Part shown: positions 1-8,899 of the stretch, in pieces
How positions within the stretch are numbered: position 1 is the first letter of the stretch
How the letters are laid out: each line of letters opens with the position of its first letter
IMG/VR virus record: IMGVR_UViG_2600255005_000007
Coordinates: 1 to 8,899 of that record
Source of the DNA: a virus
Lineage: Duplodnaviria; Heunggongvirae; Uroviricota; Caudoviricetes
DNA: 8,899 nt
Strand: one strand, 5' to 3'
Program-made: the position numbers and the translations under genes
The notes under the pieces: generated by a model
Seen by the model: the letters and a program-made list of their open reading frames with translations, nothing else
Told to the model about the DNA's origin: nothing
Databases searched by the model: none

Positions 1-480
1 GTGATAAAGCGTGTTTTGCAGGCTGCGTTCGATGTCATCAACGCTGCGCCGCTGGCTGGCAGAGAGCGAGGCAATAAACGCTTCGGCTTTTTCCGGCGAC
101 TGCTGGCGATAAAGATTCGCCAGCCCGCGCACGGCGTTAGTGTTGCTACTGTCCATACGCAGCGTCTGCTGGTAATAGCGTTCAGCGGCGGGGTAATCTT
201 TGCGCGCCATCGCCACATCGCCCAGCCCCAGCACCGCATAGCTGTCGGCGTTATCGACATTGCGCGCCTGCTGGAACAGGCGTTCTGCCCGGTCGGGATT
301 ATTGGCTTTCAGCGCAGCATCGCCCTGCTGGATCGCCAGCCAGTAGCGATTCACCTTCAGCAGACTGTTCCATTTGTCGTTGTTGCTGCTGTGCGGATCC
401 AGCGCGAGGGCTTTTTCCAGATTCGCCACCGCATTAGCACGATCGCCATTCTGAGAATACGCCTGCCCCAGCGCCCCCGG
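1..480 (-). pseudogene. bcsC: Cellulose synthase operon protein C (BcsC) TPR-region fragment; 5' part of the gene missing (replaced by inserted DNA at about 480), 3' part continues beyond the window start
   Basis: Reverse-complement translation of 1-477 reads GALGQAYSQNGDRANAVANLEKALALDPHSSNNDKWNSLLKVNRYWLAIQQGDAALKANNPDRAERLFQQARNVDNADSYAVLGLGDVAMARKDYPAAERYYQQTLRMDSSNTNAVRGLANLYRQQSPEKAEAFIASLSASQRRSVDDIERSLQNTLYH, which I recognise as the TPR region of enterobacterial BcsC. Similarity stops at 478-483 and an in-frame stop follows at 496-498. Absent from the ORF track because the frame runs off the window edge. Confidence 0.7.
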
Positions 481-2088
481 AACGCGGCGAAAACATCAGA
501 GACGAATGCAGGTAACAGCGCGAAAGCGGCAGCTTCTTCAAAAACAGCCGCACAAAATGCAGCAACAGCGGCAGAACATTCAGAGACAAATGCCCGTGCG
601 TCAGAGGAAGCCTCCGCAGACAGTGAAGAGGCTTCCCGCCGTAATGCAGAGTCAGCCGCTGAAAATGCCGGAATCGCCACCACAAAAGCGCGGGAGGCCG
701 CAGCAGACGCAACAAAGGCCGGGCAGAAAAAGGATGAGGCTCTGTCGGCAGCGACACGAGCAGAAAAGGCGGCAGACCGCGCAGAAGCCGCAGCGGAAGT
801 GACTGCAGAGCCCTATGCGAATATAGTGCCGCCGCTGCCTGATGTATGGATACCGTTTAACGATACACTGGATATGATTACGGGGTTTTCGCCATCATAT
901 AAAAAGATTGTTATTGGTGACGATGAAATAACAATGCCAGGCGACAAGATTGTTAAGTTTAAACGTGCTTCAACAGCAACGTATATTAATAAGTCCGGCC
1001 AACTCAAGCTTGCTGAAGTTGATGAACCGCGATTTGAGCGCGATGGCTTATTGATTGAAGGACAGAGGACAAATTATCTGAGGAACTCAAATAAACCAGA
1101 CTCATGGACTGTTCATTCCGCACTGAATAAAACATTTGGCACTGATAAACAGGGGTTCAATTATGCCACGGTGACACCCACGGAAAGTATAGTGGGAACA
1201 ACAGGTGGCTATACTGTGCATGGTGTGGTTGCAGCAGACAGATTCCCGCTGGCAAGTGGTGAATGTTTCACTTTTTCGTGCCGGGTTAAAGGCGCTAAAG
1301 CACGATGCAGGTTAAGAGTTTCAGTTATTATTGGTGGAACAGATACATTCTCTGCTGACTCTTATCTTGATCTGGATACCCGGATCGCAACAGTAAGCGG
1401 TAATACATCCCTTATAACAGCCAAAGCTGAACAACAGGGCGAGTGGACCTACTATGAGGCCACTTATACAGCTAATACGGACATTGATACCGTTAACTGT
1501 GCTTTTTATATGACAAATAAAATAAGTAATGAGCCATTCTATGATGACTCAACATTAACCATGACGACGCCGCAAATTGAACTGGGCAATACGGCATCGT
1601 CATTTATTGTAACTACAATGCCAACAACACGCGCAAGTGATGTGGTTACTATCCCATCGCAGAATAACCTGTCAACACGGCCTTTTACGGTATTGTGCGA
1701 AGTAAGCAGGAACTGGAGTACACCGCCCAATGTTGCGCCAAGGATATTTGATGTTGGAGGGCACAGTATTGATGATAATTATTTATCGCTGGGGTTTGTT
1801 TCAACAGGAAAGATAAGCGCCAACGTAGGAATGGTTCAGCCACAAATTTCCTCAGATGGAGAAAGGTTCATTGTGGGTGTGAGAGCTAAATCTGATTTAT
1901 CAGTAAATGCAATATGCAGTGGTAATTATACAACAAACCTTAATGGTAAAATATTTGGAGTTACAGCAACATCGTACCGGTTTGGTGGGCAGACCGCAGC
2001 AGGAACGCGTCATTTGTTTGGACACATCAGAAATTTCAGAGTCTGGTTTAAAGAATTAAATGACAGGCAAATCAAGGAGGCAGTATGA
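481..2088 (+). CDS. Phage side tail fibre protein, shaft repeats plus C-terminal receptor-binding region; 5'-truncated and fused in frame to antisense bcsC sequence (ORF 1..2088)
   Basis: From about 490 the + frame gives Ser/Ala/Glu-rich SETNA-type repeats (SETNAGNSAKAAASSKTAAQNAATAAEHSETNARASEEASADSEEASRRNAESAAEN...) typical of lambdoid side-tail-fibre shafts, then about 430 aa ending in FGHIRNFRVWFKELNDRQIKE (2017-2085), which resembles the C-terminal motif of concanavalin-A/LamG-like lectin domains. No N-terminal tail-attachment domain is present. The first 160 codons of the ORF are antisense bcsC and not fibre sequence. Confidence 0.7.
   Translation, partial: NAAKTSETNAGNSAKAAASSKTAAQNAATAAEHSETNARASEEASADSEEASRRNAESAAENAGIATTKAREAAADATKAGQKKDEALSAATRAEKAADRAEAAAEVTAEPYANIVPPLPDVWIPFNDTLDMITGFSPSYKKIVIGDDEITMPGDKIVKFKRASTATYINKSGQLKLAEVDEPRFERDGLLIEGQRTNYLRNSNKPDSWTVHSALNKTFGTDKQGFNYATVTPTESIVGTTGGYTVHGVVAADRFPLASGECFTFSCRVKGAKARCRLRVSVIIGGTDTFSADSYLDLDTRIATVSGNTSLITAKAEQQGEWTYYEATYTANTDIDTVNCAFYMTNKISNEPFYDDSTLTMTTPQIELGNTASSFIVTTMPTTRASDVVTIPSQNNLSTRPFTVLCEVSRNWSTPPNVAPRIFDVGGHSIDDNYLSLGFVSTGKISANVGMVQPQISSDGERFIVGVRAKSDLSVNAICSGNYTTNLNGKIFGVTATSYRFGGQTAAGTRHLFGHIRNFRVWFKELNDRQIKEAV
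2074..2080 (+). promoter_or_regulatory. Shine-Dalgarno AAGGAGG for ORF 2085..2363
   Basis: AAGGAGG 4 nt upstream of ATG 2085; the ATG overlaps the fibre stop (ATGA 2085-2088), suggesting translational coupling. Confidence 0.55.
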
Positions 2089-2363
2089 AAGATTTAACTT
2101 TGAAATTTCCTGGTAACAGAGAGTTTAAATCCTTCCTGTCATCTCTTGACTGGGAGGAAGATGAAGACCTCCAGAATAAACTGTTAGTCGATGAAATTGG
2201 TTTCACCTACACAGAAACAGGGGTAACTGAAGAGGGAGAACCTGTCTGTATCCGGAATAACGGTTATTTTGTCAACATTCGCATTCTTGATGACTTGTTT
2301 GATGTTTCTGTATTCTCTGATTATGTCGTGGAGCTGGAAACACCGCTTCGGGAATGGAGCTGA
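2085..2363 (+). CDS. Hypothetical small acidic protein (92 aa) coupled to the tail fibre gene
   Basis: Complete ORF with strong SD and start overlapping the upstream stop. Asp/Glu-rich. No similarity to classic Tfa tail-fibre assembly proteins that I can recognise. Confidence 0.55.
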   Translation: MKDLTLKFPGNREFKSFLSSLDWEEDEDLQNKLLVDEIGFTYTETGVTEEGEPVCIRNNGYFVNIRILDDLFDVSVFSDYVVELETPLREWS

Positions 2364-2370
2364 AAGGAGG
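2364..2370 (+). promoter_or_regulatory. Shine-Dalgarno AAGGAGG for ORF 2376..2669
   Basis: AAGGAGG followed by 5 nt spacer and ATG 2376. Confidence 0.55.
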
Positions 2371-2375
2371 AAATA

Positions 2376-2669
2376 ATGGATATAAGCCCCTTACTTCATG
2401 CACTTTGTGCTGTGGCTGCGCAGATACTGGTTGGTCTTTTTACCGGAAACTGGGCTTACGGAGCGATAGCCGGTTGTACGTTCTTCATTGCGCGTGAACA
2501 TACCCAGGCAGAATATCGCTGGATTGAAATGTTCGGGCATGGCAAGCGAATGAATATGCCGTGGTGGGGCGGATTTGATCCGCGCGCGTGGGATGTGGCA
2601 AGCCTGATGGATTTTGCTGTGCCGGTGGTGGCGTGTCTGCTGGTCTGGCTGTTGGTTAATCGTGGGTGA
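2376..2669 (+). CDS. Hypothetical small membrane protein (97 aa, two predicted hydrophobic helices)
   Basis: Strong SD; hydrophobic stretches LLHALCAVAAQILVGLFTGNWAYGAIAGCTFFIA and LMDFAVPVVACLLVWLLV; lies 12 nt after the previous ORF. Confidence 0.5.
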   Translation: MDISPLLHALCAVAAQILVGLFTGNWAYGAIAGCTFFIAREHTQAEYRWIEMFGHGKRMNMPWWGGFDPRAWDVASLMDFAVPVVACLLVWLLVNRG

Positions 2670-2700
2670 AAAAAGGTGGGCTGTATATGCAACGGAGGAA

Positions 2701-3033
2701 GAAACCCGGGAGAAAGCGCGGATACAGAAACCGGGTGCCTGTCACATCTTCCGGCACTCGATGGCAACGCAGATGCTGGACAACGGCGCAGACACGCGGC
2801 ACATCCAGGCGATCCTCGGCCATGAGAAGCTGGAGACGACGCAGATCTACACGCGGGTAGCCATCGGTCACTTACAGGAAGTTCACGCGCTGACGCACCC
2901 GGAAGAGCAGGACGAGACGTGGACGGATCGGCACGTTGCGGATGCGGTGGCAGAGCCGCAGACGCGCCGGGAGCGTAATCACGCAGAGATGGAGCGGGCG
3001 CTGGTCAGCAGGAAACGCCGCCGGAGACGCTGA
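2701..3033 (+). pseudogene. Tyrosine recombinase (phage integrase / XerCD-like) C-terminal fragment, 5'-truncated
   Basis: Translation ETREKARIQKPGACHIFRHSMATQMLDNGADTRHIQAILGHEKLETTQIYTRVAIGHLQEVHALTHP matches the C-terminal catalytic box of tyrosine recombinases (H-x-x-R-H, LGH, TTQIYT with the catalytic Tyr). No N-terminal or core-binding domain lies upstream, where fibre-associated ORFs sit instead. The reported ORF 2614..3033 begins inside the previous gene in another frame. Confidence 0.55.
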
Positions 3034-3993
3034 TGCAGGCCGGAAGCGTGATCATCGCCGGACTGCCTGAAAAGTTAGCGGGCGATCCCTGTAAGGCCGT
3101 GGGGTGAGGTGCAGGGCAGACAACCGCCTTCCCTGGCGGTTGACTGCCCCCTGCCAGCGGAGTGCGCGGGGGTAAATGCCGTTCGCCCCGTGGAGGCAGG
3201 CGTGTCCCATGCGGCCACGGCGCACGGGGCAAACGTCATTCAACATAATGCGGGGGATTATGCGCACTCTCGCCGGGTGGCAACGGCGGCGAACCCGACC
3301 CGCTGTGCGCGGCTCGTGTTCGCACAATCCGCATTATGTCTTGCGCCCCCGCGTTCAGCCCCTTAACCAGTGCCACGCGCAGCAGCTCGCTGGCGCTCGC
3401 TCCTGCCGTCTCAGCGGCGGTGTCCTTCCTCAGCGCCGCAGTCGCCGCCATCCCTGGCGGCTCCGGTGCCGTTCTGCGGCGGCGTCATCGTGTGGCAGTC
3501 AGTCAGAAAAGGGTGTCGGCCTGGCGGCCTCCGCTTGTAAGGGCTTTATGCCCGCCCGGCGTCGTCTGGCTGCGGCGGCTCGTGCCGCGCAAAAAGGCCG
3601 CGCGTCACTCGTTCCCGCCTCGCCAGCTTCCGCTGCCCGCCCCGGTCCGGTGTGGTCATGCAAAGGCCAGCTCCGGTCAGGCAGCGGTGCCACAGAGCGC
3701 CGTTCCGTCGCTTGCGGACTCTCTGCCGCCCGCACCCGCAGACCCCGCGCCGTGGCCCCGCCATGCCGCCGGAGGCGGCCTGGCGGCCCCCCGTCACGGG
3801 TTGCCGGAAACGGACTTAGTGGAAAGCGGAATGACAGGTTCGTGGCGGTGGTGATATGGTGAGCGGGCGTGAAAACGCGCGTCGGGAAAGCCGGGTTAAC
3901 GTGCTGTTAAATAATTAAAAGGTGATAGCCGTGAAGCCAGAAACGGCGCGGGCGGTAGCGTGTTAAAAAGTATGACCCGCACCGGATCGTCCC

Positions 3994-4401
3994 GATGACC
4001 CGATAGGGCTGAGAGGCGGATTAAACTTATACCAATACGCGCCTAATCCAGTAAACTGGATCGATCCTTTGGGTTTGAAATGTGGGCAACCTGAATGGAC
4101 AAATCATGGATACAAACATTTTCCTCCAAAAAACAAATCATGGAAGGATATAATTAAATCAACAAAATCAGGCCCGGCAAAATATTCTCCAGATATTGAT
4201 ATTAAAACGTTGGAATACGATGTTTTTAATACAGGCACACCTGTTACGAACGGTAAACCATGGAAAGTAAAAGATATGGGAAAAGTTATTGGGGCCAGTG
4301 AGGGTAAAGAATCTCAATGGGTTCGAGTTGAACTTAGCGGTGGGACAATACATGGACATCCTATATCAATCGATGAATTCCGAAGGCTAACAACATCATG
4401 A
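3994..4401 (+). CDS. Orphan Rhs C-terminal toxin module 1 (core-end [27 protein letters not shown] at 3997-4077 plus about 105 aa toxin domain of unassigned family); no start codon, no upstream core
   Basis: Frame opens after TGA 3973-3975. Conserved Rhs core-end peptide, then [15 protein letters not shown]...[19 protein letters not shown]. First in-frame ATG lies deep inside the domain; the ORF track start at 4069 is a TTG. Confidence 0.65.
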
Positions 4402-4691
4402 ACATTGATTTCTTAGGAAAAAAAGGGAATATAGTTTTTAATGACTTCTCCCTGAAACAAAGCATCCCTCTTAATGAACAGCGAGATGAACTTAAGGAAG
4501 ATATGCTCCAGGTTGAATATCCTGGTGGGTATCTTTTGGATGTTGGGTGGCGACCATCTTTTGATATAAATGGGAAGTTTTATATTTGTTTAATAAAGGA
4601 TTTTGATTGGGATTATCCCATTTATAATGGTTCTGCGAAAGATATTGTCTCATTATTATTTGAAATTAACCAAGCTATAAATAAACTTTAA
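4398..4691 (+). CDS. Putative immunity protein for Rhs-CT 1 (97 aa)
   Basis: ATG overlaps toxin stop (ATGA 4398-4401); AT-rich small ORF directly downstream of a polymorphic toxin domain; followed by a terminator hairpin. Confidence 0.6.
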
Positions 4692-4707
4692 ATAAACTTT
4701 AAAAAAA

Positions 4708-4746
4708 CTGGGAAGAAAATTAAATCTTCCCGGCTTTTTATTATTT
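4708..4746. terminator. Bidirectional intrinsic terminator between convergent immunity gene 1 and SymE-like gene 1
   Basis: Stem CTGGGAAGA (4708-4716) / TCTTCCCGG (4725-4733) with 8 nt loop, followed by CTTTTTATTATTT on + strand and preceded by AAAAAAA (a T-tract on the minus strand). Confidence 0.55.
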
Positions 4747-5006
4747 AACTCTCGTTCAGCACACTAAACATCCCGTTCCGCATCCCCTTAACCGCCTGTT
4801 TGACCTGGTAAAGTTCCCTGCGCAGTTCCTGTACTTCGTTGTTATCCGCTAGCAGGATCAGGCAACCTTCCGAGATCTTCACGGTAACGCCCGTGCCGAT
4901 CTCAAATCCCGCTTCTCTCAGCCATTTGGCGCTGATTTTGATCACCGGCGTGTCGCTTCGGTTGGGCAGATAGCCCACGGTACAGTGGCGCTGTGTTTTG
5001 GAAATG
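4719..5006. repeat. Direct repeat copy A (about 288 bp), carrying part of the terminator and the SymE-like ORF
   Basis: 4719-5006 aligns with 7311-7599 at roughly 97 percent identity by eye (a handful of substitutions and one extra T). Similarity ends abruptly after ...GTTTTGGAAATG. Confidence 0.8.
4745..4978 (-). CDS. SymE-family (type I toxin SymE-like, AbrB/SpoVT-fold) protein, probably 5'-truncated
   Basis: Translation GYLPNRSDTPVIKISAKWLREAGFEIGTGVTVKISEGCLILLADNNEVQELRRELYQVKQ aligns with the conserved core of E. coli SymE (TV.Y...P.I...WL..AGF..GT.V.VK..EGC..L) as I recall it. Starts at GTG with no SD; frame is open upstream to a stop at 5063-5065 with no ATG. Confidence 0.6.
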   Translation of the reverse strand: MGYLPNRSDTPVIKISAKWLREAGFEIGTGVTVKISEGCLILLADNNEVQELRRELYQVKQAVKGMRNGMFSVLNES

Positions 5007-5171
5007 ATATTTTTGTATTTAACCTGCTGATTAGATAGTAAAATAAACTTCGTGCAGATAGCTTACTTTGTCAGGGTGTGGCGGTAGCGTATGAACTATG
5101 ACGTGATGGTTTTAGTGATTTATAGACGAAACTGACAGTACGATCCGGACTTCGATTAGATTGCGCGATTT

Positions 5172-5621
5172 GACCCGATAGGGCTGGCGGGGGGGCTGAA
5201 TCTTTATCAGTATGCGCCGAATCCGTTAAACTGGATCGATCCGCTTGGATTAAGTTGCTCTAGTGATGCAAAAAAATTATCTGGTAATTTAGGATCAGCA
5301 CCAAGTAGTCACTATCGACCACATCATATGGTTATGTCTAATTCCAGCGATGTGCGTATGCGGTGGTTACGTAGAAGGATGGATCGGTTAGGTATAGATA
5401 TAAACGATTCCAAAAATGGTGTATGGCTACCCAAAAACTCTGATTATCGGTTACCGGGGACAAAAGCTACTGCTCATGGTGGTGAAGGTGTACATGGAAA
5501 TGCATATAAACAACATGTGTGGGATACGTTGAAAAATGCAAGAACAAAAGCTGATTTTGAAGCAGGGCTTGCGCAACTTAAAGTAGAGCTAAGTACTGGC
5601 AAAACGTTTCCTGTCCAATAA
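5172..5621 (+). CDS. Orphan Rhs C-terminal toxin module 2 (core-end [27 protein letters not shown] at 5172-5252 plus HNH/AHH-type nuclease-like domain); no start codon at 5' end
   Basis: Frame opens after TAG 5157-5159. Domain contains PHHMV (HH at 5322-5327), NGVWLP (5415-5432) and [14 protein letters not shown], matching the His-His...Asn...His layout of AHH-family HNH-fold toxins. The ORF track start at 5328 is the Met inside the HHM motif. Confidence 0.65.
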
Positions 5622-5625
5622 GGAG
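5620..5625 (+). promoter_or_regulatory. Shine-Dalgarno AAGGAG for immunity gene 2
   Basis: AAGGAG, 9 nt spacer, ATG 5635; the SD overlaps the toxin stop TAA 5619-5621. Confidence 0.5.
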
Positions 5626-5634
5626 TATGATCAC

Positions 5635-6252
5635 ATGAAAGATTTTCTGAAAAGTTTATATGAAGATTACAATGGAAAGTATTCGGAACTGATAGAACAG
5701 ATGAACGGAGAAAAGGCTACTTGTAGATGGGGGTATGGTGTTATGCCTGCCTTCTCTATAGAACCTTATGCATCCGAGCTTTTAGGTCATAAACCGGGAC
5801 GAATGTTGAAAAATAACTCAATCGCAGGAGTAAATAAACAATGCTATTATGTTGATGAACAAAACAGGATAATAGAAGGAATTACATACGCCAGCCATCG
5901 TAAGAAAGATAATGAATGGATTGTGTATAGAAATTTTTATATTTACCAAGAAAATACCATTCTTGGGCTTTTGTATAGTAGTACATTTGAAGATAGTAAA
6001 AACACAGGATTGAATAAGATTGTATTTATAAGCATTGATAATAAATTAATAAATAATAAGTATACTTTCATGTATGATGGGGAGTATTCTGAGGTAGATT
6101 ATATTTATAATAAAGATAAAATAATAAAAATAGACCAAAGGGTATGGTCTTCGTTTTATTTTGAACGCACTTATCTGATAGAGTCAAATGATCCATTGAT
6201 TATTAATGAATACTTAGAAAATAGTGGGAACATCAGGATCTACCCTACTTAA
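5635..6252 (+). CDS. Putative immunity protein for Rhs-CT 2 (205 aa)
   Basis: Complete ORF with good SD immediately after the toxin domain; visibly AT-rich relative to flanking DNA. Confidence 0.6.
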   Translation: MKDFLKSLYEDYNGKYSELIEQMNGEKATCRWGYGVMPAFSIEPYASELLGHKPGRMLKNNSIAGVNKQCYYVDEQNRIIEGITYASHRKKDNEWIVYRNFYIYQENTILGLLYSSTFEDSKNTGLNKIVFISIDNKLINNKYTFMYDGEYSEVDYIYNKDKIIKIDQRVWSSFYFERTYLIESNDPLIINEYLENSGNIRIYPT

Positions 6253-6357
6253 TTTATCAAAGTAAGAGACTAATATATGGACTATGATGCGGCTGTTTCA
6301 GGGATATGCGATTGAAGCCAGTAGTATGATCCTGCGATGGGGTAGATTCACCGTCCT

Positions 6358-6801
6358 GATCCGATAGGGCTGGCGGGGGGAATAAACCTCTATGCTTATG
6401 CGCCGAATCCAGTAAACCACATTGATCCTCTTGGGCTATCTTGTGGAAAGGTTGGTAACGTTGAATATCGTAATTTTGAGCGTTCTCCGGGAATGTTTTC
6501 TCGGTTATTAAAGAATAAACGTGACTTTGATTATGTTGCCAGATATAACATCTCAAGATATAAAGCTACATTGAGAAAAAATAATCCGGATGGTTTTGGT
6601 AATATTAGCCATTATTTCGATGGTGTAGATGCAAAAGGAAATAAAGTCGTTATTGAGGTGGCGAATACAGGGCATAAATCTTCAAGCGGTGGTTTTGAGC
6701 CTCCACATATTAAAATTCAAATAAAAGACGCTGATAACAAAGTGATACATAATGCCAAATATTTTTTGGAAGATGATATATATAGAATTACGGGCAAATA
6801 A
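6358..6801 (+). CDS. Orphan Rhs C-terminal toxin module 3 (core-end [27 protein letters not shown] at 6358-6438 plus about 120 aa toxin domain of unassigned family); no start codon at 5' end
   Basis: Frame opens after TAG 6343-6345. Domain SCGKVGNVEYRNFERSPGMFSRLLKNKRDFDYVARYNISRYKATLRKNNPDGFGNISHYFDGVDAKGNKVVIEVANTGHKSSSGGFEPPHIKIQIKDADNKVIHNAKYFLEDDIYRITGK. The ORF track start at 6493 is an internal Met. Confidence 0.65.
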   Translation, partial: DPIGLAGGINLYAYAPNPVNHIDPLGLSCGKVGNVEYRNFERSPGMFSRLLKNKRDFDYVARYNISRYKATLRKNNPDGFGNISHYFDGVDAKGNKVVIEVANTGHKSSSGGFEPPHIKIQIKDADNKVIHNAKYFLEDDIYRITGK

Positions 6802-7260
6802 ATGAAAAATATTAGAGAGTTAAATAATGCAGAATTCTCCGGGCTTATTAACAATGCTTTACCATTCTTACATATTAATCCTATAAGCGAAGCTGTTTGT
6901 ATTCATGCAGAAGCTTATAAAAGTGGTATTGATGTTAACTATATCCGTTGCAACGTTGACTGGGAGGGGTTTTCTTCTTTAACTGAAGCGTTGGAAACGT
7001 TATACCATGAATTATTTAAAGATGGTATTCCATCAGGCGAATTGTTGTTTTTTTACCCGTTTGATAGAACAAAGAAAGGGAATTATGGTGTTATACTGGA
7101 ATCATCTCAGCTATTAGATTTCTTAATAAAAGAGCATTTGAAGATTTATCCTGAATGTTTTAATGTAGAAATGTGTAGCTTCGGTTTTTATTTTATAGAT
7201 CACGAAATATTTTACGGCATGGAACATCCTGATTTTTTATATAGTTTCTGTGTAAGATAA
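6802..7260 (+). CDS. Putative immunity protein for Rhs-CT 3 (152 aa)
   Basis: ATG immediately follows the toxin stop (TAA-ATG at 6799-6804); AT-rich; followed by a terminator hairpin. Confidence 0.6.
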   Translation: MKNIRELNNAEFSGLINNALPFLHINPISEAVCIHAEAYKSGIDVNYIRCNVDWEGFSSLTEALETLYHELFKDGIPSGELLFFYPFDRTKKGNYGVILESSQLLDFLIKEHLKIYPECFNVEMCSFGFYFIDHEIFYGMEHPDFLYSFCVR

Positions 7261-7296
7261 TTAATAAAGTGAGGAGTATATTTCTCTTTCTTAATC

Positions 7297-7335
7297 GCCG
7301 GGAAAGGTAGATTAAATCTTCCCGGCTTTTTTATT
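7297..7335 (+). terminator. Intrinsic terminator after immunity gene 3
   Basis: Perfect 8 bp stem GCCGGGAA (7297-7304) / TTCCCGGC (7319-7326) followed by TTTTTTATT. No T-tract in the minus-strand direction. Confidence 0.55.
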
Positions 7336-7599
7336 ATTTAACGTTCGTTCAGCACACTAAACATCCCGTCCCGCATCCCCTTAACAGCCTGTTTAACCTG
7401 ATAAAGTTCCCTGCGCAGTTCCTGTACTTCGTTGTTATCCGCTAGCAGGATCAGGCAACCTTCCGAGATCTTCACGGTAACGCCCGTGCCGATCTCAAAT
7501 CCCGCTTCTCTCAGCCATTTGGCGCTGATTTTGATCACCGGCGTGTCGCTGCGGTTGGGCAGATAGCCCACGGTACAGTGGCGCTGTGTTTTGGAAATG
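7311..7599. repeat. Direct repeat copy B (about 289 bp), partner of 4719-5006
   Basis: See copy A. The right end abuts GC-rich primase-like sequence at 7599/7600. Confidence 0.8.
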
Positions 7600-7619
7600 G
7601 TGGGCCGCACTGCTGGCAC
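7338..7619 (-). CDS. SymE-family toxin-like protein, copy 2; the N-terminal 10 codons come from unrelated sequence beyond the repeat boundary
   Basis: Near-identical to copy 1 over the shared part (ISKTQRHCTVGYLPNRSDTPVIKISAKWLREAGFEIGTGVTVKISEGCLILLADNNEVQELRRELYQVKQAVKGMRDGMFSVLNER). The ORF start at 7619 is a GTG lying antisense inside the primase-like region, with no SD. Confidence 0.55.
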   Translation of the reverse strand: MPAVRPTISKTQRHCTVGYLPNRSDTPVIKISAKWLREAGFEIGTGVTVKISEGCLILLADNNEVQELRRELYQVKQAVKGMRDGMFSVLNER

Positions 7620-8899
7620 ACGGCGTCAGGCAGGTACTGATCGCCTACGACAACGATCCGGCGGGCAATGAGGCGGCGGTGAAACTGGCTTCTTCCTTAG
7701 CCGCTTCCGGGATCGCCACGTTCCGCGTACTGTTCCCGGCGGGCATGGATGCGAACGGTTATCTGTGCAGTGTGGCAGAGCCGGAACAGGCGTTCAGTCT
7801 GTTGCTGGATGGCGCGGTGCCCATGAGTGACCTGGCCGATGCGGAGAGTATCGCGCCGCAGGCCAGCGCGGAGCCTGCACACCTGACTTCATTAGCTGCC
7901 GGGGTTGCGGTCTTACCCGCAGCCGCCGCGCCTGCACCGGGCGTCAGCGTGGAAACCCTGGCCGATGGCGAACTGATGGTAGCCTTACCCGGCGAACGCT
8001 GGACTATCAGGGGCGTAAGCCGCAAACCGAACGTCGCCGCGATGAAGGTCAATGCGCAGGTGCTGGACACCAACAGCGGCGTGGTGTTCGCTGATGCGGT
8101 GGATATGATGAGCGCCCGCAGCCGTTCCGGTTATGCGCGGGCCGCAGCGGCAGAGCTTGGGCTTGCCGAAGGCGACCTGCGCCGTTCGCTGGGTAAGGTG
8201 CTGCTGGCGCTGGAGCACTGGCAGGCGGCACCGGAGCCGGAGAGCGTCGCCCCGGAGATGACGCCGGAAGATCGGGAGGCGGCGCTGGATCTGCTGCGCG
8301 ACGAGTGTCTTGCCGGGCGCATCGCTTCTGATATGGCGGCGTGTGGCGTGGTGGGTGAGTCCACCAACCTGACGGCGGCGTATCTGGCGGCGGTGTCACG
8401 CAAACTGGAGCGCCCGCTTGCCGTTCTCATCCAGTCGTCGAGCGCGGCGGGTAAGTCCAGCTTAATGGATGCGGTGCTCAATCTGATCCCGCCAGAGGAA
8501 CGGCTGCAATACAGCGCCATGACCGGGCAGAGCCTGTTCTACCTCGGCGAAACCAACCTGCAACACAAGATCCTCGCCATCGCAGAAGAAGAAGGTGTGC
8601 GCCAGGCGGCGTATGCGCTGAAACTGTTGCAATCAGACGGGGAACTGACCATCGCCAGTACGGGCAAGGACGACGCCAGCGGCAACCTGGTCACCAAACA
8701 GTACACGGTGAAAGGCCCGGTGATGCTGATGCTGACCACCACGGCGATCGACGTCGATGAAGAACTGTTAAACCGCTGCCTGGTGCTGACGGTGAACGAG
8801 TCGCGGGAGCAGACGGAGGCCGAACTGCTCTTTAACAATTTATCAGACAATCTGTGTGGGCACTCGAAGATACGGATTCTTAACGTCCTCGGACGATAA
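7600..8899 (+). CDS. Toprim-domain primase-like protein with downstream P-loop-like region, N-terminally truncated at the repeat junction (integrative/conjugative-element type replication or mobilisation protein)
   Basis: VLIAYDNDPAGNEAAVKL resembles the Toprim DxD motif region; a Walker-A-like SSSAAGKSSL follows after an Ala/Pro-rich linker. GC-rich coding sequence with good third-position GC bias. The conserved Toprim Glu region expected upstream is missing. The reported start at 7586 is a GTG inside the SymE repeat. Confidence 0.55.

Follow-up and report, generated by a model that had tools for sequence, protein, structure and literature searches.

The stretch of DNA considered here, called the window, comprises all 8,899 nucleotides taken from the virus record IMGVR_UViG_2600255005_000007, and a first-pass annotation had described it as a recombination hotspot. 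The window is 100% identical, across all 8,899 bases, to positions 4,231,089-4,239,987 of AEMF01000001.1, the single 4,463,584-bp record in which the draft assembly GCA_000208585.2 was deposited. The strain is Escherichia sp. TW11588, a soil isolate from Puerto Rico that belongs to cryptic clade IV, now E. ruysiae. The hotspot is not a real feature. The joins at 477/478, 2706/2707, 7601/7602, and 8821/8822 are, with high probability, contig ends that were abutted in a draft pseudomolecule, and the only real biology beneath them is an ordinary Rhs toxin/immunity array, which is intact in a finished genome of the same species.

Finding an artefact here keeps a false hotspot from being carried forward and avoids a set of false pseudogenes (bcsC, xerC, primase, SymE, and tail fibre) as well as two false chimeric proteins. 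It also means that the contiguity of AEMF01000001.1 is untrustworthy for synteny or gene-loss analyses. Further collapsed rRNA operons and false joins are probably present elsewhere in this record.

Breaks in the window and the intact locus of OPT1704T

BLAST searches of phage records, fetched loci, and 5,426 complete genomes of E. coli were used to delimit homologous blocks. Sharp breaks in homology lie at 477/478, 2706/2707, ~3896-3995, 7601/7602, and 8821/8822, and four of the five bring together unrelated fragments: the interior of bcsC is followed by a tail-fibre gene from codon 138, this by xerC from codon 258, and, further on, codons 289-695 of a primase are followed by the leader of a ribosomal RNA (rrn) operon. 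The four breaks reported by the first-pass annotation are all present, at most 36 nt from where it had placed them, but the fifth, at 8821/8822 (primase to rrn leader/boxA), had been missed. Its reading of bcsC, the fibre, the integrase, and the primase as truncated is correct for the record as deposited.

Join 1 (477/478) leads from the interior of bcsC to the interior of the tail-fibre gene, with ~5 nt shared by chance, and join 2 (2706/2707) from a tfa remnant to codon 258 of xerC. At join 3 (7601/7602), which has a 1-nt overlap, 1,496 bp of the E. ruysiae OPT1704T sequence are skipped, namely the 5' end of a SymE gene (the first SymE codons), a helix-turn-helix (HTH) gene, and primase codons 1-288. 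At join 4 (8821/8822) the primase breaks off internally and the rrn leader follows; the true continuation of the primase is inverted and placed 4.4 kb upstream of the window. The junctions are abrupt: their two sides have 0-5 nt in common, and no insertion sequence ends, att sites, target duplications, tRNA, or Ns were found at the junction sequences examined. At least seven such mid-gene joins occur within 23 kb of the record, again without Ns.

The claim that these breaks are also breaks in composition stands only in part. Steps in guanine-plus-cytosine (GC) content do exist, but there is none at 480, where GC is 0.59 on either side; the drop near the start of the tail fibre falls at ~840, within the fibre gene. 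The steepest steps, at 4748, 841, 7341, and ~3800-3900, are natural gene or cassette boundaries. Within the fibre gene, an Ala/Glu-rich linker (478-840) has 58% GC and the receptor-binding part past ~840 has ~42% GC; this step is natural and internal to one gene, and it could be mistaken for a junction.

None of the 5,426 complete E. coli genomes crosses any of the joins. Two chimeric open reading frames (ORFs), one of 695 amino acids (aa) at 1-2088 and one of 437 aa at 7586-8899, were each found only in AEMF01000001.1 among all indexed public assemblies. An exact search for join 2 in the GTDB representative genomes, where the species is represented by OPT1704T and not by TW11588, returned 0 matches. 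The recurrence of the same novel joints in independent genomes, by which a hotspot would be recognised, was not seen in the complete E. coli genomes, in OPT1704T, or in three further contigs that carry the locus (L007-L009).

The locus is intact in the chromosome of E. ruysiae OPT1704T (4,651,588 bp), which was closed with Illumina and Nanopore reads. Window positions 2706-7602 correspond to OPT1704T 7072-11968, contiguously and with one mismatch in 4,897 positions (99.98%), and window positions 7602-8821 are 100% identical to OPT1704T 13465-14684, which lies in the second copy of an element containing SymE, HTH, primase, and XerC genes. Between the two stretches, OPT1704T carries the 1,496 bp that are skipped at join 3, and its SymE and HTH genes are full length, as are those for the primase (983 aa) and XerC (366 aa). 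The same intact gene order is found in the metagenome scaffolds L007 and L008 and in the isolate contig L009, where the primase is split; the 205-aa immunity protein encoded at 5635-6252 is found in at least 24 other contigs, OPT1704T included. The hotspot claim fails because OPT1704T and several other assemblies keep full-length genes in the same order, at 99.98-100% identity, a case that the first-pass annotation had itself named as telling against its reading.

The locus in OPT1704T opens with a rhs gene (more than 1,550 aa) and the immunity gene that goes with it; SymE, HTH, primase, XerC, and a spacer follow, then a first toxin tip with its immunity gene and a SymE remnant. A second tip (an AHH nuclease) with its immunity gene comes next, then a third tip with its own, and then the second copy of the element, after which a deaminase tip, its immunity gene, and SymE complete the array.

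The sequence that should follow the primase fragment is present in the TW11588 record, but displaced. A stretch of 2,971 bases that ends 1.87 kb before the window is the reverse complement of OPT1704T 14685-17657, and it contains the remainder of the primase gene, XerC, and the spacer, all of which would be expected directly after window position 8821 (OPT1704T 14684). The cut falls exactly between 14684 and 14685, without overlap or gap, and only the 1.87-kb bcsC piece lies between the displaced flank and the window. The sequence missing at join 4 is, in other words, found elsewhere in the same record, in inverted orientation. A single real inversion was considered as the origin of the displaced primase/XerC block and rejected, as the bcsC/fibre, fibre/xerC, SymE/primase, and bcsC/rrn joins would remain.

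Contig ends, repeats, and competing explanations

Repeats bring assemblers to a halt, and classic break sites include prophage fibre modules and rrn operons. The joins are best explained if short assembly contigs had been placed end to end, without spacers, in AEMF01000001.1. Six pieces would meet within the window or at its edges, including those of bcsC, the tail fibre, the Rhs array (2707-7601), the 1.2-kb primase fragment, and a collapsed 16S block. The pieces would end mid-gene at repeats (the prophage fibre modules, the two copies of SymE-HTH-primase-XerC, and the seven rrn operons) because assemblers stop there and because all of them, except that of bcsC, are repeated in the genome. 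Abutting them would create both the false truncations and the false chimeric ORFs.

The positions of the joins relative to the repeats of OPT1704T are consistent with this explanation. The two element copies of OPT1704T, at 2171-8433 and 11659-17873 of its locus (L006), are 6.2 kb in length and 92.7% identical overall, with long exact runs. An exact 165-nt repeat between them has its first base at join 3 itself (11968, which is window position 7602), and another exact run ends at 7068, four nucleotides before join 2 (7072, which is window position 2706). For about 210 nt directly after the cut at 14684/14685, TW11588 carries the alleles of the first element copy, which suggests a repeat or a conversion tract at this position in TW11588. 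Other drafts are broken at matching positions: in independent short-read drafts (L010-L014), whole contigs run from within xerC to SymE/HTH, and the relatives of the primase in other genera are mostly on contigs of 4-8 kb. Blocks that end at repeat boundaries, with the repeats collapsed, are found at join 2, join 3, and the rrn block, but not at the ends of the bcsC piece.

The exactness of the repeat edge at join 3 also bears on a narrower alternative, in which only the outer joins (bcsC/fibre, fibre/xerC, and primase/rrn) are artefactual and TW11588 has really lost the 1,496 bp at 7601/7602, so that the SymE, HTH, and primase genes of its second element copy were inactivated. Decayed copies do occur naturally at such loci, as shown by the short SymE gene at 4745-4978, which is followed by a tail without the body of the element; the primase of L009 is split, E. 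coli loci carry pseudogenised pieces, and the overlap at join 3 is only 1 nt. However, the 165-nt exact repeat starts at precisely the base where the gap has its left end, a coincidence expected of an assembler break and not of a random deletion, and the 1.2-kb piece to the right of the gap ends at another artificial cut. A genuine deletion is consequently considered improbable.

In their general appearance, the joins resemble those of draft pseudomolecules ordered against a reference, in which pieces end mid-gene at the boundaries of rrn operons, prophages, and multi-copy elements. The single 16S block, the displaced and inverted flank, and the chimeric ORFs confined to one record also fit this type of construction. 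A difference is that the joins in AEMF01000001.1 have no N spacers, and it is because no such spacers mark the joins that the record looks contiguous.

Another possibility is that the assembler itself mis-joined reads, either as a true misassembly or through contaminating DNA, and that no contigs were concatenated later. The practical outcome, false joins at repeats, would be the same, and the prophage piece is 99% E. coli-like, as against 90-94% for the rest. Such an identity is, however, expected of a mobile phage module found in tens of thousands of assemblies; moreover, the 0-5 nt shared at the joins are too short for mis-joins based on overlaps or k-mers, and the block structure fits contigs of collapsed repeats. 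Mis-joined reads are an unlikely explanation, if somewhat less so than a genuine deletion at join 3.

Several points weigh against the abutting of contigs. That the record was constructed from butt-joined contigs is something we infer from the sequence. The cut at 14684/14685 is not at a repeat edge in OPT1704T, and its two sides abut without the overlap that is usual for de Bruijn contigs, which means that a trimming or cutting step must be assumed. The ends of the bcsC piece are not tied to any demonstrated repeat; they might reflect a further bcsC paralogue like that of E. coli 06-00048.

If contigs were not abutted, the window could be a real mosaic in TW11588, in which serial illegitimate recombination at one site joined bcsC, the fibre, xerC, and the primase. 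This is what the deposited sequence shows at face value, Rhs loci have historically been called "rearrangement hot spots", and junction microhomologies of 0-5 nt fit illegitimate recombination. Such a history would nevertheless require at least seven independent mid-gene joins in 23 kb, an rrn operon cut down to its 16S gene only, and the two halves of one cut lying 10 kb apart and inverted. Moreover, the locus is complete in a strain with 99.98-100% identity to it, none of the joins recurs in another assembly, and two of them fall exactly on repeat edges. A real mosaic is the least credible of these alternatives, and we regard it as extremely improbable.

The Rhs array and the primase/XerC element

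The region beneath the joins is, to judge from its sequence, a standard Rhs orphan array. The idea that cassettes accumulate serially holds for 3.9-7.6 kb, where three in-frame Rhs tips are found with their immunity genes, but not for the supposed hotspot as a whole. The small cassettes are indeed intact, as the first-pass annotation had it: the three tips are whole and in frame with their DPxGL tails. Orphan 1 (3996-4691, plus strand) consists of a DPxGL tail with a C-terminal toxin to 4401 and an immunity ORF at 4398-4691. In orphan 2 (5137-6252, plus strand), a decayed core end and the tail precede an AHH-nuclease tip to 5621 and a 205-aa immunity ORF at 5635-6252, and orphan 3 (6323-7260, plus strand) likewise has a decayed core end, the tail, a tip to 6801, and a 152-aa immunity ORF at 6802-7260.

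In all three tips, a DPxGL...DPLGL tail is in frame with a variable C-terminal domain, and there is neither an N-terminal core nor a start codon; the tails form an 81-nt repeat family (D2). The small putative immunity ORFs immediately 3' of the tips gave no family matches in Pfam/NCBIfam or with PADLOC. In OPT1704T, the gene of more than 1,550 aa that precedes the array has PAAR, RHS, and YD-shell domains; the window does not show it. Jackson et al. (2009, PMC2935791) proposed a C-terminal displacement model for the orphan tips downstream of rhs genes. The array resembles the orphan arrays described there in its promoter-less tips, its hyperconserved tail, the immunity ORF that accompanies each tip, and its position, in OPT1704T, behind a full-length rhs gene, and compared with them there is nothing unusual in the array of the window itself.

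The array is interspersed with parts of the GC-rich, 6.2-kb element, which usually comprises SymE, a cI-like HTH gene, a 983-aa primase, a 366-aa XerC, and a spacer of ~1 kb. Two parts of it lie in the window, at 2707-3995 and 7261-8821. The first begins with the last 109 codons (258-366 of 366) of a XerC-type tyrosine recombinase (2707-3033, plus strand). The complete XerC of OPT1704T passes the NCBIfam model NF002331 with 527.6 bits (cut-off 371). The second part includes primase codons 289-695 of 983 (7602-8821, plus strand), which cover the Toprim domain and the start of the P-loop part. The full-length primase of OPT1704T has a CHC2 zinc ribbon, a Toprim domain, and a P-loop part and is thus DnaG-type; the fragment in the window is without the zinc ribbon only because of join 3.

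The xerC gene is followed by the spacer, a GC-rich (69%) sequence at 3034-3895 to which no strand is assigned. Spacers of ~1 kb and 60-69% GC are found even in the low-GC genera Xenorhabdus and Photorhabdus, and their length and GC content are also kept in Escherichia and Pectobacterium. No reading frame in the spacer is conserved across genera, and there is no match to it in Pfam, NCBIfam, or Rfam. A role as a structured RNA was considered, but Rfam gave no match and the fold z-scores were -0.8 and -1.8. An ORF of 217-228 aa in the spacer was rejected as a gene and is probably spurious, having no family match, no conserved frame, and an Arg/Ala/Pro-rich product.

Between the spacer and the first tail lies a conserved non-coding "pre-tail" (3896-3995, plus strand), where the GC-rich element gives way to the AT-rich Rhs tip. 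Judging by its conservation, this break is natural and not an assembly join: the same arrangement is shared by E. coli, E. ruysiae, Pectobacterium, Photorhabdus, and Xenorhabdus, and the stretch at 2706-4075 (the 3' end of xerC, the spacer, and the Rhs tail) is ~90% identical to E. coli and 99.98% identical to OPT1704T. The motif TAAAAAGTAYGAC...CCC.A[TA]GACCC, which directly adjoins the DPxGL codons on their 5' side, is conserved across five genera (alignment A1). The pre-tail looks like a frame-shifted relic of the end of the Rhs core and is a candidate recombination site. In the Photorhabdus and Xenorhabdus copies, a boxA-like GCTCTTTAACA occurs ~95 nt upstream.

A scan of species-representative genomes yielded 73 loci of the element (L015-L087), often in tandem. 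The genera concerned are Escherichia, Scandinavium, Dickeya, Pectobacterium, Photorhabdus, Xenorhabdus, and Samsonia, together with many marine Gammaproteobacteria, Burkholderiales, and a few other phyla. Of the 38 cases in which the sequence extends far enough upstream, 26-28 have a Rhs tail 1-3 kb ahead of the primase, and a tail is found downstream of XerC in 14-18 of 32, twelve of these at a distance of 967-1041 nt. Among the 5,426 complete E. coli genomes, 63 carry the element, at a median of four places each, all of them chromosomal. PADLOC gave generic DnaG-like and HTH matches only and assigned the element to no defence system, and no paper describing a Rhs-linked primase/XerC element was found in the open-access literature.

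Two short "plasmid" records, both circular, are made up of the element together with Rhs tips and immunity genes. One, NZ_CP055112.1 from S. flexneri (8,758 bp; L094), is one period of a chromosomal tandem array in E. coli EC10; the other is NZ_CP072857.1 from Lonsdalea populi (11,289 bp; L095). These records may be real excised circles or products of the assembly of tandem repeats. In Xenorhabdus TCT-1, the identity between the tail of the main gene and the tail that follows the element begins exactly at the D codon of DPxGL.

One tentative possibility, which we think rather less probable than its absence, is that SymE, HTH, primase, XerC, spacer, and pre-tail together form a self-replicating, site-specific element for the swapping of Rhs tips. 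A circle composed of a DPxGL tail, a new toxin, its immunity gene, and the element would recombine, via its own XerC, with the DPxGL codons of a rhs gene on the chromosome; the new toxin would thereby be fused to the Rhs shell and the old tip displaced downstream, as an orphan. If this were true, the integrase and the stable circle missing from the C-terminal-displacement model would both come from the element. Support for this plausible model comes from the shared architecture of the 73 loci, the placing of Rhs tails around the primase and XerC genes, the conserved pre-tail, the D-codon boundary in Xenorhabdus TCT-1, and the two circular records, if these are not assembly products. The element is, in any case, a concrete and testable candidate for Rhs tip exchange across many bacterial groups.

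Some parallels exist with other systems. XerC/D recombinases have been noted beside polyimmunity loci (Zhang et al., 2012, PMC3482391). As in those loci and in integrons, a XerC/D-type recombinase here adjoins tandem toxin/immunity cassettes with a short conserved junction sequence. Unlike integron integrases, however, the XerC of the element falls below the integron-integrase cut-offs (124 vs 265 bits for TIGR02249 and 73 vs 435 bits for NF011946). The cassettes also differ from those of polyimmunity loci and integrons in being toxin tips fused to a structural gene, not free genes, and a large primase accompanies the recombinase in the element.

P4-like satellites, satellites like the phage-inducible chromosomal islands (PICI), and small integrative elements combine an integrase, a primase-helicase, and a cI-like repressor. 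The element has comparable parts in its tyrosine recombinase, its DnaG-type primase with a P-loop C-terminal part, and its cI/RstR-like HTH protein. In contrast to these satellites, it has no capsid-hijacking or packaging genes, adjoins Rhs tails and not tRNA genes, and occurs in tandem copies.

Two SymE-family genes lie on the minus strand of the window, and both match the Pfam family SymE_toxin. The shorter copy (4745-4978) is part of repeat D1 (4735-5006; 97% identity to 7328-7599), and the second copy (7338-7601) is without its first ~10 codons because the record jumps at 7601/7602. On the plus strand, antisense to the 5' parts of the two genes, where a SymR-like antitoxin RNA would be expected, Rfam isrA matches at 4875-4982 and 7468-7575 score 32-34 bits, below the threshold of 51. 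The pair is reminiscent of the SymE/SymR type I toxin-antitoxin system, in the SymE_toxin domain and in the isrA-like match over the 5' parts, the latter being below the Rfam gathering score. Sub-threshold Rfam matches to Shigella Ssr1 also occur on the plus strand, at 4575-5008 and 7057-7601.

Identical copies of a hairpin followed by a T-run, GGGAAGAaaattaaaTCTTCCCGGCTTTTT, are found at 4712-4745 and 7304-7338, between an immunity gene and the convergent SymE gene; each is probably a bidirectional terminator. Inverted repeats of 16 nt (3906-3921 versus 4734-4749 and 7328-7342) were considered as element ends or Xer sites and rejected: the right-hand copies lie in the terminator hairpin, in AT-rich DNA, and there are many other pairs of this kind that arise by chance.

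Pieces on either side of the array

The leftmost piece is an internal fragment of bcsC (1-477, minus strand), of which about codons 185-344 are inside the window. The match to E. coli spans 1-477/481 on the minus strand, at 93-97% identity. Upstream of the window the piece continues to a total of 1.87 kb; both its ends are cut, and it covers about codons 185-810 of 1035. Its closest match (97%) is to a second bcsABC cluster beside pflAB in E. coli 06-00048, canonical bcsC being ~94.7% identical; there may be a paralogous cellulose-synthase cluster in E. ruysiae.

The second piece is a module of a lambdoid (Rac-type) prophage (478-2706, plus strand), in which the match, at 476-2706, is 99% identical to E. 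coli B REL606 and to lambda-like phages. It contains the side tail-fibre gene from codon 138 of 674 to the stop (478-2088, plus strand) and two small phage ORFs (2085-2363 and 2376-2669, both on the plus strand), and it ends with the first 19 nt of the tfa remnant. The families phrog_1361 and phrog_1443 are represented in the module, which in its usual context carries a full fibre of 673-686 aa.

At the right edge of the window, the rrn leader from boxA (8822-8899, plus strand) is the start of a 1.75-kb collapsed rrn block. This block (L004 11237-12982) consists of boxA and the leader, a complete 16S gene, and ~56 nt of spacer, which is what the seven rrn operons share; it has no tRNA, 23S, or 5S. 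Directly after it comes a 5'-truncated gene for a YadA-type adhesin.

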